Numbered from the stretch's first letter, positions 36,301 to 60,657 are shown. The stretch is DNA of 64,000 nt from Nemertoderma westbladi (GCA_032718475.1 JAUCBJ010000162.1:25557-89556); one strand, 5' to 3'. The notes: a model not told the origin generated them from the letters alone. A program made the numbers and translations.

Positions 36301-36618
36301 GTTTACTACAGTAGTTCCTGGCAACCCAACTATTAGAGTGTTTGTTTACTGTTTAGATTACTAGTTCCTGGCAACCCTTCTATCGGAGTGTTTGTTTATT
36401 GTTTAGATTACTAGTTCCTGGCAACCCAACTATTAGAGTGTTTGTTTTCTGTTTAGATTACTAGTTCCTGGCAACCCAACTATTAGAGTGTTTGTTTATT
36501 GTTTAGATTACTAGTTCCTGGCAACCCAACTATTAGAGTGTTTGTTTATTGTTTAGATTAGTAGTTCCTGGCAACCCAAATATTAGAGTGTTTGTTTATT
36601 GTTTAGATTAGTAGTTCC
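30312..36618 (+). repeat. 50-bp tandem array of the CFAP206 exon-G acceptor junction, left arm (about 125 copies)
   Basis: Unit gtgtttgtttattgtttag|ATTACTAGTTCCTGGCAACCC(aactattaga/ttctatcgga). Begins about 10 nt after the exon-F donor. Confidence 0.97.
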
Positions 36619-37159: not shown

Positions 37160-37239
37160 GTAACTAAATCCGAGCTGCCGCCCCAGTTGAACTCTAAGAA
37201 CTACACTGCTAGCTAGCCGAACTCCACCGACAAGACGAG

Positions 37240-39630
37240 ATGAGTGAATCGGGCGAGACACCGACGCGGACCCCGGACGAAGATCAAACGATCCGCGAGG
37301 CCGCGACCAAGCGATACAGGCCCACGACGCCGGAGCCATCGATAACGGGCGAACCGGAAGTTGAGGATGAGGGGGGCCTGGAACCCGAAGTCGAGCCAAG
37401 AGAGAGAGAGAGCGAGATGGAGGGAGAAGGAGATGAGTCGACACGGAACGGAGAACGGCGCGCCGATGTCGCCGGCCAGCTACCGGCCGGGGGCGACGAG
37501 CGGCCCACCGAAACGGCGACGGTGGGGCCGACGGTGCGACGCCGGATGCAAAGAGACAGCGGAGAGATCGGTACCGATGTCGCCGGCCAGCTACAGGCCG
37601 AGGGCGACGGACGGCCCACCGGAACGGCGACGGTGGAGCCGCCGGTACGACGTCGAACCCGGAGGGACGGAGGAGAGGTCGGCGATGAGGACGTCGGGGT
37701 CTCCGAACGACTTCGACGGGCTTACATCGCGACCCGGAGACTACTAGAGAAGGCCAGAAAAGGGAAAACGGTAGACGAGGTGAGACTGAGAAAGCGACTA
37801 GGTGAGTCGGATAGACACTTTAATTATCTTATACGTTTTGGGCAAAGAGAACTAGCCGAAACGAGAGCACGTGAAATTGCCGAGGAACTGTTTAAACTAT
37901 TGGAATGTGGGAGTATGGAACCTAGCATAGCGTCAGTGTACATAGGGCCATACTTGATCGATGCCCGGGGAGTAAAACCAGTGGGTTGGAGGGGACTCGA
38001 AGGGGGCGAATCCGAGGTTAACACCGAGGATTCGGCCTCGTCGGTCGGAGAAAGCTCCGGGAAGTGGGGGAAAGTTAGTAGGTCAGGAAGGCGGGGGAAC
38101 TCCGTCGTAACCGATAAGTCTGTTACATCTTCCGCGAAAGAAAGAGCGGTGAGAAAAATAGGTGCCGCATACCGTCTCAGCATGGCAGAGCAAGGTCACA
38201 GGGAAATGGGGAAACGGCTAGAGGAGGGGAGAGAGCGGTTAGCGAGGGAAGCGGCATTGATTAGAGAAACCGGAGAGAAGGCCGAAAGGGCTTTGAAAAG
38301 CCTAAGGGAGTGTGATGAGATAGAGGAAAGGGAGTGTAGGGAGCGTGAGGCGAGAGAGGAAAGGGAACGCGAGGAGCGTGAGGCGAGAGAGGAAAGGGAA
38401 CGCAAGGAGCGTGAGGCGGAACGCAAGGAGCGTGAGGCGAGAGAGGAAAGGAAACGCGAGGAACGTGAGGCAAGGGAGGAAAGGGAACGCAAGGAGCGTG
38501 AGACGGAACGCAAGGAGTATGAAGCGAGAAGGGAAAAGGAACGCAAGGAGTATGAAGCGAGAAAGGAAAGGGAACGCAAGGAGCGCGAGGCGAGACGAAG
38601 GGAGAGCGCTAGGAGCATAGTAGAGTCGGCCAGTCGGGACACCCAGGAGTGTGAGAAGAGAATGATAGAGGCTGAAAGAGAGAACAAGAAAATAGAGAGA
38701 CTGCAGAGCGAGTTTGCGGGAAGTGAGATTAGACGGGCGCACGAGTTGCAAGTCGTGCAAGCAACGCCGTCTGAAAGCGGGGCCCGCTCGAGTATTTTTG
38801 AGGACCCGGGGGTCATAGATACATTTATTAATGCCCCACTGACAGGCACCGTACGACAGACCCAAAACTGGTGCGACCGTACGGGCGGGGGGGGTAATAA
38901 TAATAATGGTACAGTAGACGTTGTTAATATTGATAATACCGTATGGGACAACACTAATCAAACCTTTATTACAGGGAATGCTTTACATAGTGGTAGTAAT
39001 TTAAATTTAAATCAGAACGCCCCTAGTATTAATGTAGGAAATAATTCTGATATTAATGTAGCTACGCAAAATAATTCAAATAATCAAAATAATAACCCGA
39101 ATTCGAATCTACAAAATAATTTAAATAACGCAATTACGCAAAATAATTCGAATAATTTAAATAATGACCTATGCCCGAATTTACAAAATAATTCAGATAA
39201 CGTGCAGAATAATATAAATAACTTTGTTCCCAACGAACAAAATAATTCCGTTTCCAATATGGGTGTTATTAATGTAAACACGTCGGGCCTACATAACCAG
39301 GGAGCAGAGGGCCTGGTAGGCCACGTAGTTAGTAGACAGGGAGCAGAGGGCCTGGTAGGCCACGTAGTTGGTAGGGAGGGAGTAGAGGGCCTGGTAGGCC
39401 ACGCAATAGCAGAGGGAGAGGCGGGGGTGAATGGACCCGACCGCAGTAGGGTTGATGTGTCGACTAGAGAGGTATATAATAGCGGGGAGAGAGGTAGCGA
39501 GGTTAGACGTAGCGAGTGGGGGGGGGGGCTACGAGGACCCCACAACAGAGAGTTAGCGGCGAGAGGGGGGGGGGGGGGGGGGCAGGGAGTGTCCCACAGC
39601 CGTCAGCGGATAATGCGAGGGCCGAAATAG
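37240..39630 (+). CDS. BEL/Pao gag N-terminal extension (low-complexity, E/R coiled coil, N-rich)
   Basis: 796-aa ORF starting 80 nt after the LTR. Overlaps the next ORF in the -1 frame across G11 (39518-39528) and G18 (39565-39582) runs. Confidence 0.7.
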   Translation: MSESGETPTRTPDEDQTIREAATKRYRPTTPEPSITGEPEVEDEGGLEPEVEPRERESEMEGEGDESTRNGERRADVAGQLPAGGDERPTETATVGPTVRRRMQRDSGEIGTDVAGQLQAEGDGRPTGTATVEPPVRRRTRRDGGEVGDEDVGVSERLRRAYIATRRLLEKARKGKTVDEVRLRKRLGESDRHFNYLIRFGQRELAETRAREIAEELFKLLECGSMEPSIASVYIGPYLIDARGVKPVGWRGLEGGESEVNTEDSASSVGESSGKWGKVSRSGRRGNSVVTDKSVTSSAKERAVRKIGAAYRLSMAEQGHREMGKRLEEGRERLAREAALIRETGEKAERALKSLRECDEIEERECREREAREEREREEREAREERERKEREAERKEREAREERKREEREAREERERKERETERKEYEARREKERKEYEARKERERKEREARRRESARSIVESASRDTQECEKRMIEAERENKKIERLQSEFAGSEIRRAHELQVVQATPSESGARSSIFEDPGVIDTFINAPLTGTVRQTQNWCDRTGGGGNNNNGTVDVVNIDNTVWDNTNQTFITGNALHSGSNLNLNQNAPSINVGNNSDINVATQNNSNNQNNNPNSNLQNNLNNAITQNNSNNLNNDLCPNLQNNSDNVQNNINNFVPNEQNNSVSNMGVINVNTSGLHNQGAEGLVGHVVSRQGAEGLVGHVVGREGVEGLVGHAIAEGEAGVNGPDRSRVDVSTREVYNSGERGSEVRRSEWGGGLRGPHNRELAARGGGGGGQGVSHSRQRIMRGPK

Positions 39631-42600
39631 GTAAACCGCAACGACCGGCGACGGAAAGTAATAGGGGGATCGCGAGTATCCCCAGCGGCGTGCGACCGAG
39701 CAGAGAGAGACAGGTTGACGTCGCGAGAGGGCGGACGAAGCGTCGAGCCCGATCAGAGGAGGGAAGAAGAACAGTGGGGTTTAACCGGGAGGTCGACGAG
39801 AGATCTCGCGAGCGGGAATATTCCACTGATAGGAGACGAAAGGAAGACAGTAGTAGAAGTATCGCCGCAAACGATAGAAGAGCGAGGACGGACAGCGAGC
39901 CGTCGGTAGTCGAGATGAGAACGGAGAGTCAGTGGGGTCGGACTCCGGGAGATTGCCGTCGCCCCGGAGAGATGCGACCCGGTGAGATGCATTACACGCC
40001 GAGAGAGGGGTACACGATGTACCGGTACGAAGATGAGGACAGAAGAGAGGGGGGTCGAAGAGAAGCTTTCCGACGGAATACACCTATTGATCGAGAGTAC
40101 GGTAGCCGCGGGGAGGATTATTCGAGAAGAATAAACTTCGGTCCCGAGAGACACATGCAGACTGTAGGACATACTGTAGGCCTTACTGCACATACCATAG
40201 GCCATACTGAGAGAGGCTATATAGGCGATAGGATAGCGCGGACGACGGAATTAAACCCGGAAGTCGCGGAATACGTACCGGCGAGTAGGCCAGAAGCTGA
40301 TAGGCCTATACTGGTACCAGCACAGCAGTATGACTACAGCATGCAGGGACATAACATATACCCAGGGGAGGGGGGAATTATTGCGGATAAGTGCATGGGC
40401 CCCAACATATTAACATCAACCCCATTACCAAACATACCGGTGGGGGGGGGACAGGGTGACATTCCCCCATCGCAATATCAACAATATACCCCGATGGTAG
40501 CAAGAACAATGAGACCCTTGGACGAAAACAGATCGTGTGACACAGATATATGGAGGGGGCCGCTACCCCCAATGACATACCCAAGCCAGAGAAAGTCAAG
40601 AAATAGGACAGACGGAACGCACCAGACAGGGGAAACTATACAGCACCCGTCGAATCCATTGGAAGCGCAGGCGATAGGGATGGCCACGTTGATCGATGCT
40701 TTGAAAACGAGGATCGAGTTACCACCCGTGGAACCATTCAAGTTCGACGGGAGTAGGCCGGAAGAATATTTACAATTTCGGCGAATGTATAGTAACGAAA
40801 TACTAACAAAAAACTTGACGCAGGCGGAGTGCCTAAAGTATCTACAAGTGTACACGGGAGGCCCAGCATACGATATCGTGAGGCAATACCAAGGAATAGA
40901 GGGCGGCTTCACGACAGCATGGCGGGCACTGGATAGGGAATACGGGCACCCGGCCAAGATCATCAGGCAGACGCTGAGAGGCATAACATCGGGTGGCCTA
41001 CAGGACAACCCCGTTAGCATTAAGACGTTTGCTAACAAAGTTGAAAAGGCGCTAATCGTGCTGAAGACGCTAGACGCGCCGTACGAGCTCAATGCGTCCA
41101 ACAACATCACCACGATAGCGCAGGCACTACCGAACTGGCTGCGCAACAAGTGGAGAAAAATCGCCTTCTCCACTCGAGATAAGAAGGGTGCGGAACCAGG
41201 TTTAGAAGAAATGTCAAACTTCTTAAATTACGAGGCTGAACTAATAACGGACCCAGTCTATAGTGAAGATAGCCTGGGAAAGGGACCAAAGACGGATCAC
41301 TACAGAGCGAAACCAGAGCACAATACATCAAACGCATTGCCGAGACTCAGGCAATCATTGCCATACGCAGCGACGCAGGGGACTGCAAGTCCACAGGCAA
41401 ACGAAGATAAGACAACATCATGGAACAGACAGGGGAACAATAACAACATGAATAAACATAACCCCAGTACGTCCAGTAGGCCAAATCCAGTCAATAAGAA
41501 TAGTAGGGACTTTGGTACGAATATAACTGCGATACGCAATGCATTGTATAAAGAGGGCTACGACCCAAAGAGCAAATGCCAGTTACACGCAAATGCGCTT
41601 CATAAAACCATGAACTGCAGGTACTGGCAGGCGCTACCGAGGCAAGACCAGATAGATTACGCGTCGAGCAATAAGATATGCTCGCGATGTGTGAAGAGTG
41701 GACACAAGGCCAGGGAGTGCCAAGAGAAGCCTGTCAAGTTTGGCCAAAGGAGAGGCCAAACGATGGCAACGAGCACGGTAGGGGCGAAGAAGAGAGGCAC
41801 GGTGTTACTTGGAGTAGTACCGGTGCGAGTGATCGGGGAAGGCAATCGATCAGTAACAACACTAATGCTGGTTGATAGTGGAGCTGCCTTCACATTAGTC
41901 GAGGAATGGGTAGCCGAAGAAATAGGATTGAGAACAAGGCCAAGCAGAATGGCGGTAACAACCATCTCTAGCAAAGATGAGATCCTAGAGATGAGGACAG
42001 GACGGTGCGCAATTGCAGCAGTGGCACCAGGATGCGACTATGGGGCAACCATCGACCCCATCCAAGTAATAGAGTCAATTAACATCAATGCCAGGCGGCC
42101 AACCAACATCGAGGTCGAGCAATACAAATTCCTGGACAACATTGACTTCTCGATCCCAGACGTGGACGTTAGGAAGGTATCCATCATAGTAGGAATGGAC
42201 TGCCCGACGGCCCACGAAAGAATGCAAACGGTCTTCGGCGAAGACAAGCAGAGCGACCCGGTGGCCATATTAACACCATTCGGGTGGACGCTGAGTGGTC
42301 CAATAAAGAGTAAGATACCATTTAGGATGTCGGAGACATCAGGATGCATGTTCGCGGGAACAATGCAGGAAATGGGTGATGAGGGAGCAGAGGAGCAGCT
42401 TAAAAGACTGCTCAGACAAGACTTTGAGGGACTGAAAGAGACCGGGGTCGGGACCTCGGTAGAAGACAAACAGGCTCTACAAAGCGTGGAGGAATCGATG
42501 ACGTGTGATGAGGGGCGGTATACAATAGGAATGGTATGGAAACTACCGAAGATACCGCTACCCGATAATAGGGGGATGGTACTCACGAGACTTCGTAAGC

Positions 42601-45600
42601 TGAAACAAACACTAAAACGGAGCCCCGAGAAGAACGAGTACATTCACAAAACGATTAAGAAGTACGTCGAGAAGGGATGGGCCGTGGAGTTACCGGTCGA
42701 CGAGCCGAACACGGACAGGACATACTACCTGCCACTCCACGTAGCTTTAGACCCAAAGAAAGGTAAACTTAGGATGGTAGTCGATGCATCGGCAAAGACC
42801 GACGGAAAATGCTTAAACGATTACCTGTTGGAAGGCCCAAATATTTACAATTCGGGCATAGAGGTGTTACTTAGATTTTGAAATGGGAAACACGCCTTCA
42901 CGTGTGACATAGAAGGCATGTTCAACCAGGTCCGTGTAACGGAAGAAGATAGTGACAGTCAACGCTTCTTATGGTATAACGGCGAAGAAGAACCGCCGAT
43001 AATACCAGCGTATAAGATGGTAGTACAAAACATGGGGGCCAAGTCGTCCTCATTTACGACGACTATGGCAGTGAGAGACACGGTAAAGGGCAAGGAAGAT
43101 AGATACAGCAGTAGGGCCGTCGATATGATCCGACGCGGCTTCTACGTAGACGACGGTATGGAGTCTGGAGATACGGTTGAGGAGATACTGGAAACAGGGC
43201 GCGAGGTTCGCGACATCCTGAAAGGATCCGGCTTCAACCTGACCAAATTCCAATCCAGTTCAGAAGAATTTATCAAGGCAATAGAGGACAAGAAACCGGA
43301 ATCGACCATGGACAACCCTACAACAGCCAAAGGACAGGACATGGCGAATAAGAGAACACAATCGCAGCAAAAGGCATTGGGAATCGTGTGGGATAGAGGA
43401 ACAGACGAACTGAAGTATCAGCTGAGCCAAGAGGGCGCAGACACCCATACGAAGAGGGGTTATGTATCGTATATAGCAAGGATATACGATCCCCTAGGCC
43501 TAGCATCCCCATTACTAGTCACGGGGAAACAGATACTCAAGAGAGTATATAAATTGAAGGATGAGTGGGACGTAGAGGTACCAGAGGACATCAAGAAACA
43601 GTGGAGCAAATGGACAGGAGACTTGGAAAGGATGGGAACATACAACATGCCGCGAGTGTATTTTCCGGACGGGAACATGACAAGTCTGGACCTACATATG
43701 TTCTCCGACGCGTCGTTAGAGGCATACGGAGCGGCACTCTATTTAGTACAACGAGAGGGGGCTCACAAGCCCAGACTAGCCTTTAGCAAAGCTAAGTCAA
43801 CGCCGCCAGATTCAGCATCTGTTCCCAAGTTAGAATTGACAGCTGCGAGACTAGGAGTTAGAGCCACAGCCTACCTAGTGGATACAATTCCCAACATAGT
43901 GGAGACACACTACTGGACGGATTCCATGGTAGTGCTTGGTTGGCTACACAACGAAAAGACGAGATACCCAATATTCGTCGCGAATAGAGTGGACGAAATA
44001 AGGGCGAGCACAGAACTGGAAAGGTGGCACTACTGCCCAACAGACGAGAACCCAGCGGACTTGCTGTCGAGGGGCGTGGAACGCCACACTTTCTTAAAGA
44101 AGGAAGCATTGTGGCAACATGGGCCACAATCTCTAAGTGATAGGGAGGCCTGGCCGCCGATGAGGAAGGTGGACCCGGGCTCGGAACCAATATCAGAGGG
44201 AGAAGAGGGAGACTCAGAGGGAGAAGAGATATACTCCCAGATGGTGAGGGAGATTAGGGACGTGCAACCAAAGCAAGAACTACGCGATAACCCGACGGAC
44301 AAACTCCTCAGTTACAGTTCTAGTTGGTACAAGACCAAGAAATTAGTGGCGTACTGGAGAGCTTTCGGGAATTTCCTCGCGGGAGTTAATAAGGAGAAGA
44401 AAACCAGGGAAACCATAGATCTGGAAGGAGCGGCCAAGGCAATAATCCGCTATGAACAACGAAAGAACTACGGCGACGAGGTGGAACGCGTCGGCAACCA
44501 ACAGCACCTCCGACGGGACAGCGAGTTGATTACGCTGTTGCCACAATTCAACGACGATGGGATTCTAGTAATGAATTCTAGGGTGGGATATAACAACAGC
44601 ATAGTCGTGCCACCGAAACCCATCATCATTCCCACAGGATCGCCTATAGTCCACCAGATCATATGGGACTCCCACAAATCGATACTGCATGGGGGCACCA
44701 ACCGAACCCTCACAGAGATAAGGAGGACCTATTGGGTCAAACAACTAAGGAAGAAGATTAAAGCGGTAGTGGGGCAGTGCCAGACCTGCCGACGAGCGAA
44801 GAAGGAACGAGCCGTACAGGAGATGGCGCCACTACCGGCGAGTAGGGTAAGACAGCACGACCCGCCATTTACGCATTGCGGTGTGGACATGTTCGGGCCG
44901 ATAAAGATCAAGGTGATGCGACACACGGAGAAACGCTACGGTATTATCTTCGTATGCAACAATACACGGGCGGTAGGGATAGAACTCGCCCAAGATGCAA
45001 CCGCATCAGCATTCATTAACGCCTTAGAAAGGTTTAGGGACCGCAAAGGTGGGACGATCGCAGTGATATACAGCGACAACGGCACCAACTTTGTGGGCGC
45101 AGAGAGTGAGATGGCAGAGGCCTTGGACATCTTAGAAGGAGAAGAAGTCAGGGCGGCCATGAGAAGACGACAAGTAAAGTGGGAGAGAAGGACGCCGTAT
45201 GCACCACATACACTAGGATGCGTCGAGAGACTGGTGGGCAGTTCAAAGCGTCTAATGACGAAGTTAATGAACACCCACATGGTCACTGAAGACGTCTTAC
45301 GGACAGTACTTGCGAAGTGCGAGGGGATCATTAATAGCAGACCGCTATACCCGGAGAATGATGACCCTGAGTCATTAGACGTGCTGACGCCTAGCCATTT
45401 CCTGATGGAAAGGCCAGCGACCATCGATATGCGGGGTGTAGACCCAGATGACATACACTCCCGCCAAAGTTGGAAAGTCGCTAAAGCAATAAGCGCAGAG
45501 TATTGGAGGAGGTGGGTCGAGGAATACCTACCCACGCTCCATAAGCGAAGCAAGTGGAGGAAGCCGAACAGGGAGTTAAGAGAGGGAGATCTCGTAATCG

Positions 45601-45782
45601 TCACGGATGATACTATCATCAACAACCAGTGGCGGTTGGCGAGAGTCGTAGGCACCTACTCCGACGAGGACGGAAGAGTCCGATCGGTAGAAGTGCGGAT
45701 AGGTGGAAAGATAGGTGCGAAAGACAGAAAAACCTACAGGAGAGCAGTAGGTAAATGCTGTCTTCTAGAAGGGGCACCTTAA
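39516..45782 (+). pseudogene. BEL/Pao gag-pol with one in-frame TGA at 42879-42881
   Basis: DUF1759-like FDGSRPEEYLQF, Cys/His knuckles (CSRCVKSGHKAREC), protease LVDSGA, RT YYLPLH..KLRMVVDAS..DIEGMF..FYVDD, Pao RNase H FSDAS..WTDS..NPADLLSRG, integrase HHCC, GVDMFGP, SDNGTNF, ERLVG, C-terminal YWRRWVEEYL/GDLV. ORFs 39516 and 42918 share a frame; LRF* most simply reflects CGA>TGA. Confidence 0.93.
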
Positions 45783-45890: not shown

Positions 45891-46541
45891 TAGTTAGTTA
45901 GTTAGTAGGTACGTAGTACCTAGAGTTAGTTAGTTAGTAGGTACGTAGTGCCTAGAGTTAGTTAGTTAGTAGGTACGTAGTGCCTAGAGTTAGTTAGTTA
46001 GTAGGTACGTAGTACCTAGAGTTAGTTAGTTAGTAGGTACGTAGTGCCTAGAGTTAGAGAGTTAGTAGGTACGTAGTACCTAGAGTTAGTTAGTTAGTAG
46101 GTACGTAGTGCCTAGAGTTAGAGTGTTAGTAGGTACGTAGTGCCTAGAGTTAGAGTGTTAGTAGGTACGTAGTACCTAGAGTTAGAGAGTTAGTAGGTAC
46201 GTAGTGCCTAGAGTTAGAGAGTTAGTAGGTACGTAGTGCCTAGAGTTAGAGAGTTAGTAGGTACGTAGTACCTAGAGTTAGAGTTAGAGGGTACGTAGTA
46301 CCGCTAGTTAGAGTTAGAGTTAGAGGGTACGTAGTACCGCTAGTTAGAGTTAGAGTTAGAGGGTACGTAGTATCGATAGTTAGAGTTAGAGTTAGAGGGT
46401 ACGTAGTACCGCTAGTTAGAGTTAGAGTTAGAGGGTACGTAGTACCGATAGTTAGAGTTAGTAGGTACGTAGTACCTAGTTAGAGTTAGAGTTAGTAGGT
46501 ACGTAGTACCGTTAGTTAGAGTTAGAGGGTACGTAGTACCA
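45891..46541 (+). repeat. Internal hairpin tandem array (20 copies, about 29-36 bp) between pol and ORF3
   Basis: Core (ta)ggtac-gta-gtacc(ta) separated by TTAG/TTAGAG spacers. Confidence 0.9.
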
Positions 46542-47043
46542 TTAGTTAGAGAGAGAGAGTGAGAGGTAAAAGGGGTAAATAGGATATAGATATTAGTTAG
46601 TAGTAAGTAGAGTTAATAGCGAGAGGGGGGCATATGAGTACAGCTGGATAAATCGTGCGGCCCCACGACGCATACTGCTGTACTGCATGGGCCCACAGAG
46701 TAGGCCAGAATATGGATCAGAGAATAGAATAAATCCATAGGCAGTAGTAGGTAGTAGGACAGTAGGATCAAAACAAACAAATAAATAGAATAGGGCTAAA
46801 AATCGAAGAATAGTGGCAACACAAGGAAAGTCGTTCTAGAACATAATAAAAGTAACGGACGGAAATTGTAAATTAGGCTGATTTACTAGCTCCGAAATTA
46901 ATTAGGTTAAATTTAGGCTAAAAGGCGCAACTAAGTAGAAAGTAGGCCATTGTCGAACCATACGAAACATCTAAATACTTCACTCATCTGTATTGCGCCT
47001 TGGTAAGGCACCACCCTGCAGGTGAGCGAGTGTAGCGTTCGGA

Positions 47044-49578
47044 ATGGCGAGTAAGCTGATCAGGAAGAGAAAGGCGGAGTCAGGAGGAAAAGAAATACTG
47101 GTGGATTTCACCGAAAGACACCCGGAGGAGAAGACGAGAGGATACTACGAGAAGTTGGAAAGGGGTCACGCGGCACGAGCGCTGCAGGACCACTTCCGGG
47201 AGATGCACGAGCAGCGGCTGGTCGGGACCTACGGAACACCGTCGCTGGACAACGCGATCTTCCAACACTTCCACTACGTGGTGAAAGGAGACGAGGCGAA
47301 GTTCGGGATTCCGAAGTATCCGAGGGAATCGCCGAGGAAGGACTGGAAAAGATTCATAGAGTCCGTCAACCGAGGAGGATATATGATCCTAGATGACGAG
47401 GGAACCGTGGAGGACGAAGCGGGTTCGAGACGAGGAACGGCAGGGTCGGCCAGGACCATACTCTTGCATTTGGCCGCGCCAAATGGGGACATCTTCTTAT
47501 TCGACCTAGGGACGTATGGGAAGAGGGATGGGCCGAAACTAGACCGATTACCGAAAGCGGTACAAGTCTTAGTAAGGGAGAAGTCGACGACGAAGGTGGG
47601 ATCGGCGATTCGCGAGGACGCGGAGAGGATCATCGGTCCGGACGCCACCAACCTCCTGGATATGCAGAAAGTCTTTATGGCTATGACGGCACCGGATGGA
47701 TTGGGGGTGGTCGAGAACACAGGCCAATGCGGGGCGGTGGCGATGGGCCAATTATTGGGGCTCGTATGCCACAAACCGATGGACTGGGGAAAGTTTAGGG
47801 AAGAATACGGAGCAGAACTGGCGAACTCGCTGAAGTGGGGAGCGAGACCGGGAAAGCAGGAGGTATATCAGTTTCGCAGAGGAGCGATAAAGGTATATCA
47901 GAAGCGATATATCCTGCAGGAGGACTGGATGATGATAAGTTTGCTTAACTTATTCATGACCGTAGTTATCGAAAGGGAACCAGGGGCATTTCTGTTATCG
48001 GGATCACCCCTAAGCTACAGGAGAGCCTTTAAGACGGCCTTTGACGGTCTGGTAGACCACCCGGGGCTGAAGGGCGAGTCGGTGTACTACAACAGCCGAC
48101 ATCTGGTAGACGGGGAGACGGATACACCGTATCAGAGATGGGAGCAGCTAGAGGCGGACAGACGAGAAGCAAAGCGACTGGAAGAAGTCGCTAGACGGGA
48201 GAGGATAGAAGCAGAGGAGAGGGAAGAGGAGGCCAGGGCACAGAGTTACGGCTTCGAGGAACAGGCGGGCCTAGACGAACTTCATTGGACTTCGTCAGGG
48301 AGTTCGGGGGAGTCTCTAGGGCGAGAATTGGGATGGACGGTGGGATCGCCGAAACAGTCGACGTCGGGGTTGCAAACGATGCCCATGCCAGCGGGCGCCG
48401 AGGGCGACCAACCGCCAAGGAAGCTAAGGGAGCTAGAGGGATGGAGAGCTACGGGCGAGAGCCAAGGCGGGAAGGGACATAGTGGATCCATCGGGATACC
48501 GGGGTTGGAAACACTACCAGAAGAGGAAGACGGCGACGACGAGTTCGGAGAGATACCGCCCATCGAGAGGATAGGCCACTCGGACACGGACTGGGTTGGC
48601 GGAAGGGTGGTGACAGCCAGTGGGGCGAGGGCCTTCTGGAACAGATCCGGCAAGCGGACCTGGGTGCACGAGGGGCCGGCGATGGATTTCGCGGGGAGCA
48701 CCATCAGGTTGGGCGAGCAACCGGGAACAGCACCACGGATAGTATTCGGGGAGACGATGCCCGAGAGGGGCGGAGAGATCGACGTAAACAGGGAGAGCAA
48801 TGTAGAGAAGTTCGCCTACCAGCGACTCCATAGACCGCGGAGATCGCTTGGGACGAAAGACGAGGTGGGACGGGAGACATTGGTACTCGGCTGCGACTAC
48901 TGTGGGAGACAGACCCATCAGGAAAGCAGCTGCCTATACCGGTTCCAACGGGGAACCTTTTGTCTCTACTGTAGAGAACCAAGTCACAGGATGGGGGCGT
49001 GTCCACGGTTGCATAACCGATGTCCAAAGTGCCACTTTCGGGGACACTACGGACGCGAGTGCGACTGGATGAGCGACGAGGAGAAGTTCACGAGGTTCGA
49101 GGAGTGGGCCGACGTCGGGGCCATGACGCGCCAGCGCATGAAGGCCCAAGAGTTCAAGTGGGGTTTCTTCCTCATAAACCAGGAGACCCACATGGAAATC
49201 ATAAAGCGAAGGTTACCGTTTACCTATCAAGAGGTAGCAACGGCGGCGTCGTTCGCCGGAGTTATGAACACGCAACGGTACCTGGACAGGTGGACACCAG
49301 AGAACCGGAGGGAGTTTAGGGATTTCTTGGCGGAACACGTACCAAAGGCAATGAAAATGATCCTATGGGACGCCACACGAGGGAGACAACCAGGCCATTC
49401 TGAGGGGCCACCGGCGAAGCGGTATCGGGCATTAATAACACCAGCGCCCAAGGAGCCGACGACCGGGATCAGCAAGGAAGTGGCGGCGAAGGTCCGGAAG
49501 CAGAAAGCGGATGATGCCAGAGGAGCGGTGATAACCAAGAAACGGGCCAGGGAAGAGGACGTGAGGAGGAACAGATAA
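47044..49578 (+). CDS. Retrotransposon extra ORF: putative DEDDy (WRN/RNase D-like) 3'-5' exonuclease plus 3 CCHC zinc knuckles
   Basis: Intact 844 aa. ILDDEG (ExoI-like), LLHLAA..IFLFDL, LPKAVQVLVREKSTTKVGSAIREDAERI (ExoII-like), YQKRYILQED (ExoIII-like). Knuckles CDYCGRQTHQESSC, CLYCREPSHRMGAC, CPKCHFRGHYGREC. The ORF is certain; the exonuclease call rests on motif recognition. Confidence 0.7.
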   Translation: MASKLIRKRKAESGGKEILVDFTERHPEEKTRGYYEKLERGHAARALQDHFREMHEQRLVGTYGTPSLDNAIFQHFHYVVKGDEAKFGIPKYPRESPRKDWKRFIESVNRGGYMILDDEGTVEDEAGSRRGTAGSARTILLHLAAPNGDIFLFDLGTYGKRDGPKLDRLPKAVQVLVREKSTTKVGSAIREDAERIIGPDATNLLDMQKVFMAMTAPDGLGVVENTGQCGAVAMGQLLGLVCHKPMDWGKFREEYGAELANSLKWGARPGKQEVYQFRRGAIKVYQKRYILQEDWMMISLLNLFMTVVIEREPGAFLLSGSPLSYRRAFKTAFDGLVDHPGLKGESVYYNSRHLVDGETDTPYQRWEQLEADRREAKRLEEVARRERIEAEEREEEARAQSYGFEEQAGLDELHWTSSGSSGESLGRELGWTVGSPKQSTSGLQTMPMPAGAEGDQPPRKLRELEGWRATGESQGGKGHSGSIGIPGLETLPEEEDGDDEFGEIPPIERIGHSDTDWVGGRVVTASGARAFWNRSGKRTWVHEGPAMDFAGSTIRLGEQPGTAPRIVFGETMPERGGEIDVNRESNVEKFAYQRLHRPRRSLGTKDEVGRETLVLGCDYCGRQTHQESSCLYRFQRGTFCLYCREPSHRMGACPRLHNRCPKCHFRGHYGRECDWMSDEEKFTRFEEWADVGAMTRQRMKAQEFKWGFFLINQETHMEIIKRRLPFTYQEVATAASFAGVMNTQRYLDRWTPENRREFRDFLAEHVPKAMKMILWDATRGRQPGHSEGPPAKRYRALITPAPKEPTTGISKEVAAKVRKQKADDARGAVITKKRAREEDVRRNR

Positions 49579-50285
49579 GTTCCCAGAGACGAGAGAGTGA
49601 GACTGAGACTGGAAAGTGGTGCGCCTGGAAGGCGCCGCATGGAACGTACGAACTATTAAATACAAATTTATTTAATTAATGCAAATAACCATATAAGTGC
49701 AATTCGTATGTACGTACGTAGTAATTAGCAGTAAATACACGATCGGAGTAAGTACTATAGTCATACAACCTTTCTCAATTAGCTACTGGGACTGGGGGAC
49801 AACTGACTATGGCACTATGGACGAGACAACTGACAATTTCACGCTTCTTGAGTGCGACGGCACGAGAGGGGGGGGAGGTTCGTCAGAAGAGATAAAATAG
49901 TCAAAGTGGAGTTGAGGACCGGAGTAAGAGTGCGAAGTGCGGAGAGAGTGCCGATGCAATTCTAGTGTGGGGGGGGGGGAGAATAAGAGGCTGAGTAAGG
50001 GACGAGGAGGTCCGAACGTGAGAGAGTTAGGGTGAGAGTGAAGGTGAGATAGGGCGAAAATGTTGGGGAAACAAAAGTTGCGTGGGAGGTGAGCGCGATC
50101 GGCCCGACATGAGACGCCAGGCACACAGGGTAGCGTTATCATACCCATAGGGGGCGGCCTGGAAAGCCGACCCCGAGAGAAAAGAATTCCACCCCACACC
50201 CGATACTAGATCGGGATCCAGCGGGATTGTAACGCACTTTTTGGTTGATGCTATCTTCTTACCGGGAAGATAGCATGGGGGGGAG

Positions 50286-50826
50286 TGTTAGCTTATTCAA
50301 TCCCGCCAACACCCCATAAAGTTATAAGCCGATAAGCAATATTGGGAGCCACGAGATTGGGCAATTAACCAACTCGTGCCATCCCAATAAGAGTGGGAAG
50401 GAAGCACACAATAGAGGGTCAGGGGCCAAACCCCTAACCCAGGGAGAACAGGTGGAGTGAACGGGAATACTCCACGGGGCGCCAACAAGGGTATTAACCA
50501 ATCAGAGGGGGGGAATGGCATCGATTGAGTAGCAGTAAGGCCACCGTGCAATATAACCAATAACCTATTAATCAGTGATTCAGTTATCTCAGTGCAGCAG
50601 TGCTAGCGTAGGGTACAGTCAATTAGTTTAGTTAGGGGATCACGGGACTTTAGTTACCGTATCCCGCCTTGTACACATTATATCTATATCTATATCCTAT
50701 GCCCTATTATTATTATACACCGAACTTCAGAACTCAGTTACTTTATTTCACCCTTATACACGGCGGGGACGCGTGGACTAAATTACCACATCGGATAAAT
50801 CGGGATCCCTCCTGGATCCCGTCACA
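50286..50826 (+). repeat. 3' LTR (541 bp)
   Basis: Direct repeat of 36619-37159, preceded by the PPT and followed by the TSD GTTCC. Confidence 0.97.
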
Positions 50827-53312
50827 GTTCCTGGCAACCCTTCTATCGGAGTGTTTGTTTATTGTTTAGATTACTAGTTCCTGGCAACCCTTCTATCGGA
50901 GTGTTTGTTTATTGTTTAGATTACTAGTTCCTGGCAACCCTTCTATCGGAGTGTTTGTTTACTGTATAGATTACTAGTTCGTTGCAACCCAACTATTAGA
51001 GTGTTTGTTTACTGTTTAGATTACTAGTTCCTGGCAACCCTTCTATCGGAGTGTTTGTTTATTGTTTAGATTACTAGTTCCTGGCAACCCTTCTATCGGA
51101 GTGTTTGTTTACTGTATAGATTACTAGTTCTTGGCAACCCAACTATTAGAGTGTTTGTTTATTGTTTAGATTACTAGTTCGTTGCAACCCAACTATTAGA
51201 GTGTTTGTTTATTGTTTAGATTACTAGTTCCTGGCAACCCTTCTATCGGAGTGTTTGTTTACTGTTTAGATTACTAGTTCCTGGCAACCCTTCTATCGGA
51301 GTGTTTGTTTATTGTTTAGATTACTAGTTCCTGGCAACCCTTCTATCGGAGTGTTTGTTTACTGTATAGATTACTAGTTCGTTGCAACCCAACTATTAGA
51401 GTGTTTGTTTATTGTTTAGATTACTAGTTCCTGGCAACCCTTCTATCGGAGTGTTTGTTTACTGTTTAGATTACTAGTTCCTGGCAACCCTTCTATCGGA
51501 GTGTTTGTTTATTGTTTAGATTACTAGTTCCTGGCAACCCTTCTATCGGAGTGTTTGTTTACTGTATAGATTACTAGTTCTTGGCAACCCAACTATTAGA
51601 GTGTTTGTTTACTGTTTAGATTACTAGTTCCTGGCAACCCAACTATTACAGTGTTTGTTTATTGTTTAGATTACTAGTTCTTGGCAACCCAACTATTAGA
51701 GTGTTTGTTTACTGTTTAGATTACTAGTTCCTGGCAACCCAACTATTACAGTGTTTGTTTATTGTTTAGATTACTAGTTCCTGGCAACCCAACTATTAGA
51801 GTGTTTGTTTTCTGTATAGATTACTAGTTCTTGGCAACCCAACTATTAGAGTGTTTGTTTTCTGTATAGATTACTAGTTCCTGGCAACCCAACTATTAGA
51901 GTGTTTGTTTACTGTTTAGATTACTAGTTCCTGGCAACCCTTCTATCGGAGTGTTTGTTTATTGTTTAGATTACTAGTTCCTGGCAACCCTTCTATCGGA
52001 GTGTTTGTTTACTGTATAGATTACTAGTTCGTTGCAACCCAACTATTAGAGTGTTTGTTTATTGTTTAGATTACTAGTTCCTGGCAACCCTTCTATCGGA
52101 GTGTTTGTTTACTGTTTAGATTACTAGTTCCTGGCAACCCTTCTATCGGAGTGTTTGTTTATTGTTTAGATTACTAGTTCCTGGCAACCCTTCTATCGGA
52201 GTGTTTGTTTACTGTATAGATTACTAGTTCTTGGCAACCCAACTATTAGAGTGTTTGTTTACTGTTTAGATTACTAGTTCCTGGCAACCCAACTATTACA
52301 GTGTTTGTTTATTGTTTAGATTACTAGTTCTTGGCAACCCAACTATTAGAGTGTTTGTTTATTGTTTAGATTACTAGTTCCTGGCAACCCAACTATTATA
52401 GTGTTTGTTTACTGTTTAGATTACTAGTTCGTTGCAACCCAACTATTAGAGTGTTTTTTTATTGTTTAGATTACTAGTTCTTGGCAACCCAACTATTAGA
52501 GTGTTTGTTTTCTGTTTAGATTACTAGTTCTTGGCAACCCAACTATTAGAGTGTTTGTTTTCTGTTTAGATTACTAGTTCCTGGCAACCCAACTAATAGA
52601 GTGTTTGTTTATTGTTTAGATTACTAGTTCCTGGCAACCCTTCTATCGGAGTGTTTGTTTACTGTTTAGATTACTGGTTCCTGGCAACCCTTCTATCGGA
52701 GTGTTTGTTTATTGTTTAGATTACTAGTTCCTGGCAACCCTTCTATCGGAGTGTTTGTTTACTGTATAGATTACTAGTTCTTGGCAACCCAACTATTAGA
52801 GTGTTTGTTTATTGTTTAGATTACTAGTTCCTGGCAACCCAACTAATAGAGTGTTTGTTTATTGTTTAGATTACTAGTTCCTGGCAACCCTTCTATCGGA
52901 GTGTTTGTTTACTGTTTAGATTACTGGTTCCTGGCAACCCTTCTATCGGAGTGTTTGTTTATTGTTTAGATTACTAGTTCCTGGCAACCCTTCTATCGGA
53001 GTGTTTGTTTACTGTATAGATTACTAGTTCTTGGCAACCCAACTATTAGAGTGTTTGTTTATTGTTTAGATTACTAGTTCCTGGCAACCCTTCTATCGGA
53101 GTGTTTGTTTATTGTTTAGATTACTAGTTCCTGGCAACCCAACTATTAGAGTGTTTGTTTATTGTATAGATTACTAGTTCCTGGCAACCAAACTATTAGA
53201 GTGTTTGTTTACTCTTTAGATTACTAGTTCCTGGCAACCCAACTATTAGAGTGTTTGTTTATTGTTTAGATTACTAGTTCCTGGCAACCCTTCTATCGGA
53301 GTGTTTGTTTAC
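50827..53312 (+). repeat. 50-bp acceptor-junction array, right arm (about 50 copies), ending in the real exon
   Basis: Same unit as 30312-36618. The last copy runs into unique coding sequence at about 53313. Confidence 0.97.
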
Positions 53313-53399
53313 CGCTCACGGTATTACTCATTCAGTTCAAAGGAAGCAGCTGGGGAATTTTGTAAAGACCCTGAAGGATTTATTGCGATGATAGGAGAG
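53270..53399 (+). CDS. CFAP206: CFAP206 internal exon G (hidden between two arrays)
   Basis: tgtttag|A TTA CTA GTT CCT GGC AAC CCT TCT ATC GGA...GGA GAG|gttag. Encodes LLVPGNPSIGVFVYRSRYYSFSSKEAAGEFCKDPEGFIAMIGE (cf. LLLPGNPAIGILKYKEKYYTFNSKDAAYSFAENPE). Phase 2 matches exon F. Confidence 0.92.
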
Positions 53400-56300
53400 G
53401 TTAGTTATGTTATGTGAGGTTAGTTATGTTAGGAGAGGTTAGTTATGTTAGGAGAGGTTAGTTATGTTATGTGAGGTTAGTTATGTTAGGAGAGGTCAGT
53501 TCTGATACATAGGAGAGGTTAGTTATGTTAGGTGAGGTTAGTTCTGATACATAGGAGAGGTTAGTTATGTAAGGTGAGGTTAGTTCTGATACATAGGAGA
53601 GGTTAGTTATGTTAGGTGTGGTTAGTTCTGATACATAGGAGAGGTTAGTTATGTTAGGTGAGGTTAGTTCTGATACATAGGAGAGGTTAGTTATGTTAGG
53701 TGTGGTTAGTTCTGATACGTAGGAGAGGTTAGTTATGTAAGGTGAGGTTAGTTCTGATACATAGGAGAGGTTAGTTATGTTAGGTGAGGTTAGTTCTGAT
53801 ACATAGGAGAGGTTATTTATGTTAGGTGAGGTTAGTTCTGATACATAGGAGAGGTTAGTTATGTTAGGTGAGGTTAGTTCTGATACATAGGAGAGGTTAG
53901 TTATGTTAGGTGAGGTTAGTTCTGATACATAGGAGAGGTTAGTTATGTAAGGTGAGGTTAGTTCTGATACATAGGAGAGGTTAGTTATGTTAGGTGTGGT
54001 TAGTTCTGATACATAGGAGAGGTTAGTTATGTTAGGTGAGGTTAGTTCTGATACATAGGAGAGGTTAGTTATGTTAGGTGTGGTTAGTTCGGATACATAG
54101 GAGAGGTTAGTTATGTTAGGTGAGGTTAGTTCTGATACATAAGAGAGGTTAGTTATGTTAGGTGTGGTTAGTTCTGATACATAGGAGAGGTTAGTTATGT
54201 TAGGTGAGGTTAGTTCTGATATATAGGAGAGGTTAGTTATGTTAGGTGAGGTTGGTTCTGATACGTAGGAGAGGTTAGTTATGTTAGGAGAATTTAGTTA
54301 TGTAAGGTGAGGTTAGTTCTGATACATAGGAGAGGTTAGTTATGTTAGGTGAGGTCAGTTCTGATACATAGGAGAGGTTAGTTATGTTAGGTGAGGTTAG
54401 TTCTGATACATAGGAGAGGTTAGTTATGTTAGGTGAGGTTAGTTCTGATACATAGGAGAGGTTAGTTATGTTAGGTGAGGTTAGTTCTGATACATATGAG
54501 AGGTTAGTTATGTTAGGTGAGGTTAGTTCTGATACATAGGAGAGGTTAGTTATGTTAGGTGAGGTTAGTTCTGATACATAGGAGAGGTTAGTTATGTTAG
54601 GTGGGGTTAGTTCTGATACATAGGAGAGGTTAGTTATGTTAGGTGAGGTTAGTTCTGATACATAGGAGAGGTTAGTTATGTTAGGTGAAGTTAGTTCTGA
54701 TACATATGAGAGGTTAGTTATGTTAGGTGAGGTTAGTTCTGATACATAGGATAGGTTAGTTATGTTAGGTGAGGTTAGTTCTGATACATAGGAGAGGTTA
54801 GTTATGTTAGGTGAGGTTAGTTCTGATACATATGAGAGGTTAGTTATGTTAGGTGAGGTTAGTTCTGATACATAGGAGAGGTTAGTTATGTTAGGTGAGG
54901 TTAGTTCTGATACATATGAGAGGTTAGTTATGTTAGGTGAGGTTAGTTATGTTAGGTGAGGTTAGTTCTGATACATAGGAGAGGTTAGTTATGTTAGGTG
55001 AGGTTAGTTCTGATACATAGGAGAGGTTAGTTATGTTAGGTGAGGTTAGTTCTGATACATAGGAGAGGTTAGTTATGTTAGGTGAGGTTAGTTCTGATAC
55101 ATAGGAGAGATTAGTTATGTTAGGTGAGGTTAGTTCTGATACATAGGAGAGGTTAGTTATGTTAGGTGAGGTTAGTTCTGATACATAGGAGAGGTTAGTT
55201 ATGTTAAGTGAGGTTAGTTCTGATACATATGAGAGGTTAGTTATGTTAGGTGAGGTTAGTTCTGATACATAGGAGAGGTTAGTTATGTTAGGTGAGGTGA
55301 GGTTAGTTCTGATACATAGGAGAGGTTAGTTATGTTAGGTGAGGTTAGTTCTGATACATAGGAGAGGTTAGTTATGTTAGGTGAGGTTAGTTCTGATACA
55401 TAGGAGAGGTTAGTTATGTTAGGTGAGGTTAGTTCTGATACATAGGAGAGGTTAGTTATGTTAGGTGAGGTTAGTTATGTAAGGTGAGGTTAGTTCTGAT
55501 ACATAGGAGAGGTTAGTTATGTTAGGTGGGGTTAGTTCTGATACATAGGAGAGGTTAGTTATGTTAGGTGAGGTTAGTTCTGATACATATGAGAGGTTAG
55601 TTATGTTAGGTGAGTTTAGTTATGTAAGGTGAGGTTAGTTCTGATACATAGGAAAGGTTAGTTATGTTAGGTGAGGTCAGTTCTGATACATAGGAGAGGT
55701 TAGTTATGTTAGGTGAGGTCAGTTCTGATACATAGGAGAGGTTAGTTATGTTAGGTGAGGTTAGTTCTGATACATAGGAGAGGTTAGTTATGTTAGGTGT
55801 GGTTAGTTCTGATACATAGGAGAGGTTAGTTATGTTAGGTGAGGTCAGTTCTGATACATAGGAGAGGTTAGTTATGTTAGGTGAGGTTAGTTCTGATACA
55901 TAGGAGAGGTTAGTTATGTTAGGTGAGGTTAGTTCTGATACATAGGAGAGGTTAGTTATGTTAGGTGAGTTTAGTTATGTAAGGTGAGGTTAGTTCTGAT
56001 ACATAGGAAAGGTTAGTTATGTTAGGTGAGGTCAGTTCTGATACATAGGAGAGGTTAGTTATGTTAGGTGAGGTTAGTTCTGATACATAGGAGAGGTTAG
56101 TTATGTTAGGTGAGTTTAGTTATGTAAGGTGAGGTTAGTTCTGATACATAGGAAAGGTTAGTTATGTTAGGTGAGGTCAGTTCTGATACATAGGAGAGGT
56201 TAGTTATGTTAGGTGAGGTTAGTTCTGATATATAGGAGAGGTTAGTTATGTTAGGTGAGGTTAGTTATGTAAGGTGAGGTTAGTTCTGATACATAGGAGA

Positions 56301-59300
56301 GGTTAGTTATGTTAGGTGAGTTTAGTTATGTAAGGTGAGGTTAGTTCTGATACATAGGAGAGGTTAGTTATGTTAGGTGAGGTTAGTTCTGATACATAGG
56401 AGAGGTTAGTTATGTTAGGTGAGGTTAGTTCTGATACATAGGAGAGGTTAGTTATGTTAGGTGAGGTTAGTTATGTAAGGTGAGGTTAGTTCTGATACAT
56501 AGGAGAGGTTAGTTATGTTAGGTGAGTTTAGTTATGTAAGGTGAGGTTAGTTCTGATACATAGGAAAGGTTAGTTATGTTAGGTGAGGTTAGTTCTGATA
56601 CATATGAGAGGTTAGTTATGTTAGGTGAGTTTAGTTATGTAAGGTGAGGTTAGTTCTGATACATAGGAGAGGTTAGTTATGTTAGGTGAGGTTAGTTCTG
56701 ATACATAGGAGAGGTTAGTTATGTTAGGTGAGGTTAGTTCTGATACATAGGAGAGGTTAGTTATGTTAGGTGAGTTAGTTCTAATACATAGGAGAGATTA
56801 GTTATGTTAGGTGAGGTTAGTTCTGATACATAGGAGAGGTTAGTTATGTTAGGTGAGGTTAGTTCTGATACATAGGAGAGGTTAGTTATGTTAGGTGAGG
56901 TTAGTTCTGATACATAGGAGAGGTTAGTTATGTTAGGTGAGGTTAGTTATGTAGGTGAGGTTAGTTCTGATACATAGGAGAGGTTAGTTATGTTAGGTGA
57001 GTTTAGTTATGTAAGGTGAGGTTAGTTCTGATACATAGGAAAGGTTAGTTATGTTAGGTGAGGTTAGTTCTGATACATATGAGAGGTTAGTTATGTTAGG
57101 TGAGTTTAGTTATGTAAGGTGAGGTTAGTTCTGATACATAGGAGAGGTTAGTTATGTTAGGTGAGGTTAGTTCTGATACATAGGAGAGGTTAGTTATGTT
57201 AGGTGAGGTTAGTTCTGATACATAGGAGAGGTTAGTTATGTTAGGTGAGGTTAGTTCTAATACATAGGAGAGGTTAGTTATGTTAGGTGAGGTTAGTTCT
57301 GATACATAGGAGAGGTTAGTTATGTTAGGTGAGGTTAGTTCTGATACATAGGAGAGGTTAGTTATGTTAGGTGAGTTAGTTCTAATACATAGGAGAGGTT
57401 AGTTATGTTAGGTGAGGTTAGTTCTGATACATAGGAGAGGTTAGTTATGTTAGGTGAGGTTAGTTATGTAAGGTGAGGTTAGTTCTGATACATAGGAGAG
57501 GTTAGTTATGTTAGGTGAGGTTAGTTCTGATACATAGGAGAGGTTAGTTATGTTAGGTGGGGTTAGTTCTGATACATAGGAGAGGTTAGTTATGTTAGGT
57601 GGGGTTAGTTCTGATACATAGGAGAGGTTAGTTATGTTAGGTGAGGTTAGTTCTGATACATATGAGAGGTTAGTTATGTTAGGTGAGTTTAGTTATGTAA
57701 GGTGAGGTTAGTTCTGATACATAGGAAAGGTTAGTTATGTTAGGTGAGGTCAGTTCTGATACATAGGAGAGGTTAGTTATGTTAGGTGAGGTTAGTTCTG
57801 ATACATAGGAGAGGTTAGTTATGTTAGGTGAGGTTAGTTCTGATACATAGGAGAGGTTAGTTATGTTAGGTGTGGTTAGTTCTGATACATAGGAGAGGTT
57901 AGTTATGTTAGGTGAGGTCAGTTCTGATACATAGGAGAGGTTAGTTATGTTAGGTGAGGTTAGTTCTGATACATAGGAGAGGTTAGTTATGTTAGGTGAG
58001 GTTAGTTCTGATACATAGGAGAGGTTAGTTATGTTAGGTGAGGTTAGTTCTGATACATAGGAGAGGTTAGTTATGTAAGGTGAGGTTAGTTCTGATACAT
58101 AGGAGAGGTTAGTTATGTTAGGTGAGGTTAGTTCTGATACATAGGAGAGGTTAGTTATGTTAGGTGAGGTCAGTTCTGATACATAGGAGAGGTTAGTTAT
58201 GTTAGGTGAGGTTAGTTCTGATACATAGGAGAGGTTAGTTATGTTAGGTGAGGTTAGTTCTGATACATAGGAGAGGTTAGTTATGTTAGGTGAGGTTAGT
58301 TCTGATACATAGGAGAGGTTAGTTATGTTAGGTGAGGTTAGTTCTGATACATAGGAGAGGTTAGTTATGTTAGGTGAGGTTAGTTCTGATACATAGGAGA
58401 GGTTAGTTATGTTAGGTGAGGTTAGTTCTGATACATAGGAGAGGTTAGTTATGTTAGGTGAGGTTAGTTCTGATACATAGGAGAGGTTAGTTATGTTAGG
58501 TGAGGTTAGTTCTGATACATAGGAGAGGTTAGTTATGTTAGGTGAGGTTAGTTCTGATACATAGGAGAGGTTAGTTATGTTAGGTGAGGTTAGTTCTAAT
58601 ACATAGGAGAGGTTAGTTATGTAAGGTGAGGTTAGTTCTGATACATAGGAGAGGTTAGTTATGTTAGGTGAGGTTAGTTCTGATACATAGGAGAGGTTAG
58701 TTATGTTAGGTGAGGTTAGTTCTGATACATAGGAGAGGTTAGTTATGTTAGGTGAAGTTAGTTCTAATACATAGGAGAGGTTAGTTATGTAAGGTGAGGT
58801 TAGTTCTCATACATAGGAGAGGTTAGTTATGTTAGGTGAGGTGAGGTTAGTTCTGATACATAGGAGAGGTTAGTTATGTTAGGTGTGGTTAGTTCTGATA
58901 CATAGGAGAGGTTAGTTATGTTAGGTGAGGTTAGTTCTGATACATAGGAGAGGTTAGTTATGTTAGGTGAGGTTAGTTCTGATATATAGGAGAGGTTAGT
59001 TATGTTAGGTGAGGTTAGTTCTGATACATAGGAGAGGTTAGTTATGTTAGGTGAGGTTAGTTCTGATACATAGGAGAGGTTAGTTATGTTAGGTGAAGTT
59101 AGTTCTAATACATAGGAGAGGTTAGTTATGTAAGGTGAGGTTAGTTCTGATACATAGGAGAGGTTAGTTATGTTAGGTGTGGTTAGTTCTGATACTTAGG
59201 AGAGGTTAGTTATGTTAGGTGAGGTTAGTTCTGATACATAGGAGAGGTTAGTTATGTTAGGTGAAGTTAGTTCTAATACATAGGAGAGGTTAGTTATGTA

Positions 59301-60657
59301 AGGTGAGGTTAGTTCTGATACATAGGAGAGGTTAGTTATGTTAGGTGAGGTTAGTTCTGATACATAGGAGAGGTTAGTTATGTTAGGTGAGGTTAGTTCT
59401 GATACATAGGAGAGGTTAGTTATGTTAGGTGAAGTTAGTTCTATTCTAATACATAGGAGAGGTTAGTTATGTAAGGTGAGGTTAGTTCTGATACATAGGA
59501 GAGGTTAGTTATGTTAGGTGTGGTTAGTTCTAATACATAGGAGAGGTTAGTTATGTTAGGTGAGGTTAGTTCTGATACATATGAGAGGTTAGTTATGTTA
59601 GGTGTGGTTAGTTCTGATACATAGGAGAGGTTAGTTATGTTAGGTGAGGTTAGTTCTGATATATAGGAGAGGTTAGTTATGTTAGGTGAAGTTGGTTCTG
59701 ATACGTAGGAGAGGTTAGTTATGTTAGGAGAGTTTAGTTATGTAAGGTGAGGTTAGTTCTGATACATAGGAGAGGTTAGTTATGTTAGGTGAGGTCAGTT
59801 CTGATACATAGGAGAGGTTAGTTATGTTAGGTGAGGTTAGTTCTGATACATAGGAGAGGTTAGTTATGTTAGGTGAGGTTAGTTCTGATACATAGGAGAG
59901 GTTAGTTATGTTAGGTGAAGTTAGTTCTAATACATAGGAGAGGTTAGTTATGTAAGGTGAGGTTAGTTCTGATACATAGGAGAGGTTAGTTATGTTAGGT
60001 GAGGTTAGTTCTGATACATAGGAGAGGTTAGTTATGTTAGGTGAGGTTAGTTCTGATACATAGGAGAGGTTAGTTATGTAAGGTGAGGTTAGTTCTGATA
60101 CATAGGAGAGGTTAGTTATGTTAGGTGAGGTTAGTTCTGATACATAGGAGAGGTTAGTTATGTTAGGTGTGGTTAGTTCTGATACATAGGAGAGGTTAGT
60201 TATGTTAGGTGAGGTTAGTTCTGATATATAGGAGAGGTTAGTTATGTTAGGTGAGGTTAGTTCTGATACATAGGAGAGGTTAGTTATGTTAGGTGAGGTT
60301 AGTTCTGATACATAGGAGAGGTTAGTTATGTTAGGTGAAGTTAGTTCTAATACATAGGAGAGGTTAGTTATGTAAGGTGAGGTTAGTTCTGATACATAGG
60401 AGAGGTTAGTTATGTTAGGTGAGGTTAGTTCTGATACATAGGAGAGGTTAGTTATGTTAGGTGTGGTTAGTTCTGATACATAGGAGAGGTTAGTTATGTT
60501 AGGTGAGGTTAGTTCTGATATATAGGAGAGGTTAGTTATGTTAGGTGAGGTTAGTTCTGATATATAGGAGAGGTTAGTTATGTTAGGTGAGGTTAGTTCT
60601 GATATATAGGAGAGGTTAGTTATGTTAGGTGAGGTTAGTTCTGATACGTAGGAGAGG
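53391..60657 (+). repeat. Tandem array of the CFAP206 exon-G donor junction (42-bp unit = 19+23, roughly 170 copies)
   Basis: Unit ataggagag|gttagttatgttaggtgaggttagttctgatac. Its first 9 nt are the exon end. Confidence 0.96.

Follow-up and report, generated by a model that had tools for sequence, protein, structure and literature searches.

A DEDDy-fold, zinc-knuckle ORF3 in BEL/Pao retrotransposons: a selected gene family with catalytic-looking and non-catalytic branches

Juno and Vesta, LTR retrotransposons of bdelloid rotifers, are gypsy-like. An ORF3 of the DEDDy type is described for both of them and for Athena/Terminon in the relevant passages of PMC5408684, and is cited again in passages of PMC5718144 and PMC6338049. 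Such rotifer accessory nucleases have been known since 2017; neither a function nor selection on them has been demonstrated. In T. brucei RNase D (TbRND, PDB 7c42/7c45), RNA binding comes from the knuckles, and these also increase cleavage, as stated in an excerpt of PMC7797062, and in Egalitarian the same nuclease fold binds stem-loop RNA with its catalytic residues dispensable (excerpt of PMC13186709); by the title of PDB entry 9rw6, Egalitarian binds a retrotransposon localisation signal. The ICTV profile of the Belpaoviridae (PMC8742986) lists gag, pol and an env-like gene, a length of 4.2-10 kb and tRNA priming. The term 'exonuclease' does not occur in the main text of a BEL/Pao survey (PMC3118150), and the literature searched, which took in few subscription journals and Repbase entries, yielded no BEL/Pao element described with a nuclease-knuckle ORF3.

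The window analysed here is a 64,000-nucleotide stretch of Nemertoderma westbladi DNA (GCA_032718475.1 JAUCBJ010000162.1:25557-89556) containing a BEL/Pao-type LTR retrotransposon with such an ORF3. Like the Juno/Vesta ORF3, it is a non-envelope frame 3' of pol in an LTR element, with an RNase D-like DEDDy fold in which one acidic position is changed to Glu. The rotifer protein, however, is a stand-alone nuclease with a DEED set, whereas the BEL/Pao ORF3 is fused to knuckles and an extension, its acidic set being DEDD, DEDE or lost. Further, the BEL/Pao family has a conserved non-catalytic clade, unlike the rotifer ORF3 as described, and is under strong purifying selection, while the passages of PMC5408684 on rotifer ORF3 report no significant departure from neutrality. 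TbRND likewise joins a DEDDy exonuclease to tandem CCHC knuckles, but it is a kinetoplastid cellular gene with four knuckles after a 28-aa linker, compared with three after ~265 aa in ORF3, and since our nuclease-only profile did not match it significantly (E=0.9), the shared architecture is probably convergent. EXD2, WRN-exo, MUT-7/Nibbler, EXD1 and Egalitarian have the same fold and motif order, with EXD2 the best sequence match; unlike these 10-19% identical proteins, ORF3 is element-encoded and has other flanking domains. The element resembles the Belpaoviridae in its LTRs, gag, PR-RT-RH-IN order, Pao peptidase A17 and polypurine tract and departs from their profile in its 14.2-kb length, its nuclease-knuckle ORF3 and its lack of a TGG primer site. 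Belpaoviridae would thereby gain a new kind of third gene together with a knuckle-plus-helix domain that has no name, and the family offers a natural experiment, with dozens of intact, selected versions in catalytic-looking (DEDD), altered (DEDE) or non-catalytic form, every one of them linked to its own element.

Element structure and the ORF3 protein

The element (14,208 bp, plus strand) is flanked by the target-site duplication GTTCC, whose left copy (36614-36618) falls within a 50-bp satellite array and whose right copy lies at 50827-50831. Its 541-bp LTRs (36619-37159, reading TG...CA, and 50286-50826) are within the BEL/Pao range of 0.2-1.2 kb, and with two differences between them the element is young. 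ORF1 (37240-39630), a 796-aa N-terminal gag-region frame without a Pfam match, overlaps across a long G run with the frame at 39513-42881, which encodes gag (DUF1759 and one clear knuckle), protease and the start of RT and terminates in an in-frame stop (42879-42881). The remainder of pol (42882-45782) carries RT (YVDD), RNase H/Peptidase_A17, integrase and DUF5641, giving the Pfam order DUF1759, protease, RVT_1, Peptidase_A17 (E=2e-40), Integrase_H2C2, rve and DUF5641. Peptidase_A17 was present in all of the best 120 listed pol relatives, whose identity to the window pol reaches 35%. ORF3 (844 aa) extends from its ATG at 47044 to a stop at 49578, after the pol stop (45782) and before the G-rich polypurine tract (50275-50285) and the 3' LTR (50286). 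In this copy gag and pol are interrupted, by the in-frame stop and by the division of the gag region into two frames, and ORF3 is open. The LTRs, domain order and pol relatives, as well as the open frame and its coordinates, agree with the original prediction of a BEL/Pao element carrying an intact 844-aa ORF between pol and the 3' LTR.

Between pol and ORF3 there is an internal tandem array of ~20 copies of a 32-bp unit (45892-46540) that includes TTAG motifs. Relatives do not share this array; short tandem repeats of any kind were found in 2 of 36 of their pol-to-nuclease intervals, and the array was rejected as a family-wide binding site. The element as a whole sits in the 50-bp satellite array (30313-36620 and 50826-53311), and a 42-bp G-rich array lies downstream (53391-60658).

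No TGG of a tRNA-type primer site directly follows the 5' LTR of the window element. Instead, the nine bases at this position (37160-37168) are complementary to LTR-internal positions 36982-36990, a match reached in 9 of 5000 shuffles and 8 of 2000 slid controls, and the duplex is present in both the predicted and the centroid folds of 36910-37200; the overall folding energy of the LTR-leader is ordinary (z -0.99 and -0.22). This arrangement resembles the self-priming of Tf1/Sushi, for which the passages concerned in PMC6317226 and PMC3601003 report no BEL/Pao case; priming by a tRNA at an internal site is an alternative for the window element. The ORF3-bearing relatives L013 and L023 have ordinary TGG primer sites. 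A splice acceptor had also been proposed before ORF3, as the sign of a putative spliced subgenomic RNA, and the candidate AG is present at 47020-47021, with 22 nt and no other ATG between it and the ORF3 start codon; it is nonetheless weak, since pyrimidines make up 8 of the 16 upstream bases and the junction CAG/GTGAG matches the donor consensus as well. No GTRAG donor occurs within 37160-37400. Rotifer-element ORF3s are described as separate, spliced units in the relevant part of PMC5408684.

The ORF3 protein consists of a DEDDy exonuclease-fold domain (aa 59-351; 47218-48096), a charged helix, a disordered linker, three CCHC zinc knuckles (aa 617-673; 48892-49062) and a conserved helical extension (49063-49236). 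The knuckles, which start at aa 617, 640 and 660, have the C-x2-C-x4-H-x4-C spacing of retroviral nucleocapsids; the coiled coil that had been proposed before them is modelled as one E/R-rich single helix (aa 362-401; 48127-48246), separated from them by the ~200 disordered residues of aa 403-605. The extension conserves F685, A689, G692, T695, R698, G707 and Y728 and has no Pfam or PDB match by profile. A profile search of the PDB with the knuckle module returned no significant chain, and the hits of the fold search were filled by the nuclease domain. In the relative P0001 the knuckle-plus-extension module occurs twice, at aa ~302 and ~497. The peak 19-residue hydropathy of ORF3 (1.3) belongs to the ExoIII helix of the model, which contains no membrane-type helix; hence ORF3 lacks a transmembrane or signal segment, as expected of a non-envelope protein.

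Assignment of the nuclease domain depended on profiles and on structure. Pfam yielded no family for the whole window ORF3 or its N-terminal parts, a single-sequence PDB search gave no match, word-index searches found no homologue whether the query was the protein or alignment A1 (32 rows), and single-sequence structure prediction was of low confidence (pLDDT 32). An exhaustive HMMER search reached 73 proteins, most of them via the knuckles, with the N-terminal part alone matching 11 of the 73 at E<1e-3; ten hits that were looked up are ENA or Logan proteins without a name. With an iterated profile, whose E-values are circular, the nuclease domain was recognised in 33 of the 41 hits at least 400 aa long, and DNA_pol_A_exo1 fell just below the Pfam cut-off in 2 of these 41. 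The family profile matched EXD2 (E=2.6e-9 at full length, 9.5e-13 with the domain only) and Egalitarian (E=1.3e-6). AlphaFold2, given a 32-row alignment, produced two confident regions, the nuclease domain, with a core pLDDT mostly of 72-95, and the knuckle module. The top nine Foldseek matches of the model were all DEDDy domains (E=1.3e-4), and VIA-align gave Z=13.7 for Nibbler (rmsd 3.5 A over 204 residues), 12.8 for WRN, 12.6 for RNase D and 11.8 for EXD1; Nibbler, Pol I exo, diDNase, WRN, Rrp6 and RNase D are tied within ~1 Z, and identity to the structural relatives is 12-19%. Together, the profile match to EXD2 and the structural match to Nibbler bear out the predicted DnaQ/DEDDy fold.

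All motifs quoted in that prediction were located in the protein: LDDEG at aa 116, LLHLAA at 140, FLFDL at 151, KVG at 184, IREDAERI at 189, LLDMQ at 204, LGLVCHKP at 238 and QKRYILQED at 286. The ExoI and ExoII residues are present, D117-x-E119 (codons at 47392 and 47398) and D192 (47617) being aligned to D-C-E and GVGCSED of EXD2. ExoIII had been considered atypically spaced, but Y289-x3-E293 (47908 and 47920) aligns with Y-AAR-D of EXD2, so that the oddity is a Glu at the Asp position. In this alignment the spacing of the acidic motifs is canonical, with a DEDE set that may be active or weakened.

Selection, co-divergence and catalytic branches

The ORF3 region is highly repeated in host DNA runs (8344 pieces in X1 and 4855 in X3). 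Of the best-supported 40 of 582 differences, 36 fall within ORF3, 29 of them synonymous (23-33% expected). In the nuclease core, 35 of the best-supported 40 of 68 substitutions are synonymous (33.5% expected, p=2e-12), those shown all lie outside the catalytic codons, and every indel stayed below 8%; the two substitution lists overlap and hold the best-supported rows only. Among the best 12 of 42 indels, ORF3 contains a single one, which preserves the frame. Decayed copies exist as well, as internal deletions seen at low depth show. The synonymous excess is the mark of strong purifying selection on ORF3 in the host copies.

A scan of metagenomes with a degenerate knuckle pattern returned at least 120 loci, 80 of them with flanks, 67 of these 80 coming from eight assembly records whose accession prefixes are alike and the pol-linked L010 and L079 from other records. 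The nuclease domain lay upstream on the same strand in 56 of the 80. A BEL/Pao-like pol directly preceded it at 28 of 30 loci with at least 2.5 kb upstream, and at 27 of 28 with 3.5 kb, and Pao domains were confirmed in all three loci tested. Such a knuckle-based search favours the knuckle appearing as the constant part. In two BEL/Pao loci with pol, a knuckle-bearing ORF3 has no detectable nuclease domain, whose place is taken by another N-terminal region of no assigned family (L047:3341-6529, L059:6880-9648), so that the knuckle module is what stays constant. In viral contigs the pattern had no match, and L071 is a chance hit. ORF3 remnants in L012 and L022 have no pol within ~9 kb upstream, and L022 has diverged flanking direct repeats, which suggests a deleted, non-autonomous copy.

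When nuclease and integrase trees were compared for 32 loci and the window, all nine supported nuclease splits were recovered in the integrase tree and 16 of 20 supported integrase splits in the nuclease tree, with no supported conflict. The corresponding Mantel rho was 0.86, a value as high occurring in 0 of 2000 permutations. Nuclease and knuckles share one open frame in 28 of the 32 loci, and ORF3 is kept across elements whose integrases are <40% identical. Judged by these sequence comparisons, ORF3 is a selected, element-borne gene family; its presence in other members without decay, as originally predicted, is reflected in the synonymous excess and in dN/dS values of 0.04-0.47. In a pol tree made up wholly of BEL/Pao polyproteins, 30 of them others that may or may not come with an ORF3, the window pol fell outside the clade of ORF3 loci, and forcing it into that clade was rejected (p-AU 0.017, with a long branch and a simple model). 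Similarity to the window had guided the choice of the comparison set, and P0098 joined the group once the tree had been seen. This placement would fit at least one transfer of ORF3 between lineages, or its presence in the ancestor followed by losses.

Among the 32 elements the acidic set is DEDD in 14, DEED in one, DEDS in one and lost in 16, and 15 of these 16 form one clade in both trees. Alignment A1 includes ten DEDD rows and six DEDE rows, the window among the latter; the last ExoIII residue is D in 14 and E in 11 of its 32 rows. Pairwise dN/dS of the nuclease domain was 0.09-0.47 in six DEDD pairs and 0.04-0.47 in seven non-catalytic pairs, where the pairs overlap in membership and dS approaches saturation. 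Cumulatively, these data suggest that ORF3 catalysis is dispensable at the family level, and the catalytic alteration that had been anticipated from ExoIII spacing stands on the loss of residues in half of the elements and not on spacing.

Possible functions of ORF3

Because 16 of 32 elements have lost the catalytic residues yet show purifying selection, the function shared by the family, which survives loss of catalysis, is most likely RNA binding and not cutting; conservation of all four acidic residues in 14 of 32 argues that catalysis matters in that branch. We tentatively favour, as a leading but by no means secure reading, an ORF3 that works by binding the RNA of its own element and is not chiefly a cutter. 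The knuckle module would grip single-stranded RNA, as in the trypanosome RNase D, and the nuclease fold would engage an RNA 3' end or stem-loop, as in Egalitarian. Motifs of the form P-x0-2-K[KR]x[KR], present in 37 of 66 ORF3 proteins at 0.91 per 1000 aa (0.20 in shuffles, maximum 0.42, a ~4x excess; 0.10 in pol), would serve as import signals carrying ORF3 into the nucleus, although such basic stretches of a disordered linker may contact RNA instead. There, ORF3 would shield genomic RNA from host decay or silencing and then pass it on to export and packaging, and branches with intact acidic residues would also trim RNA 3' ends. The cis-acting part of this proposal is argued from co-divergence, a pattern expected of any gene that is linked and maintained, and the place of the window pol outside the clade of the other ORF3-bearing elements speaks against the proposal. 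A wider reading, which we hold to be possible but doubtful, is that an old BEL/Pao group owns an RNA-binding nuclease or pseudonuclease which recognises nuclear element RNA and shields it from small-RNA and exosome defences, a counter-silencing protein exchanged between lineages and repeatedly converted from enzyme to binder.

The same fold could be turned against the host in trans, ORF3 degrading, over-trimming or sequestering piRNAs/siRNAs or acting as a decoy of Nibbler/MUT-7 and EXD1, so that silencing is lowered. The best structural matches are indeed Nibbler EXO domains, EXD1 matches too, a dead nuclease could still serve as a decoy, host DNA runs contain very many pieces of the family, and inactive DEDD derivatives act in piRNA biogenesis according to a passage of PMC5408684. 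However, the Nibbler score is tied with those of five other DEDDy proteins and EXD2 is nearest by sequence, low dN/dS and tree congruence do not suggest an arms race, and elements without ORF3 would presumably also profit from a suppressor that acts in trans. We consider this counter-defence unlikely. For ORF3 proteins of this kind, RNA handling and counter-defence are testable against each other with single expressed proteins.

Less probable still is a role inside the particle, in which ORF3 would trim primer or cDNA ends or proofread RT and the knuckles would form a second nucleocapsid-like chaperone. Their spacing, the single clear knuckle of gag, the length of the element and the self-complementary primer site, at which a 3' end would need making, would all suit such an enzyme, but L013 and L023 carry ORF3 with TGG primer sites, and the catalytic residues are missing from half of the sampled elements, in which the domain is conserved. 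An entry function, or a recently captured host gene with no function, as the env position and the internal deletions in some host copies might imply, conflicts with the evidence for selection and co-divergence, which largely refutes it, and is most improbable for a protein with no transmembrane or signal segment, 12-19% identity to its structural relatives and retention across highly diverged integrases.

Other features of the window

Apart from the element and its surrounding arrays, the window contains a 574-aa ORF (21912-23636, minus strand) with several C2H2-like fingers and a 36-bp repeat tail, which has no Pfam match at 1e-3, and a non-LTR retrotransposon RT fragment (14081-15178, plus strand; RVT_1) with an in-frame stop, beside which lies DNA with an inverted partner at 1492-2186. 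A single-frame ORF on the minus strand (16640-17692) encodes a DGAT2/MOGAT-type acyltransferase (DAGAT, E=3e-116). On the plus strand, a myotubularin-related phosphatase gene (6967-12883) has GRAM and Myotub-related domains, and a 38-bp tandem array of ~108 copies lies between its two long exons.
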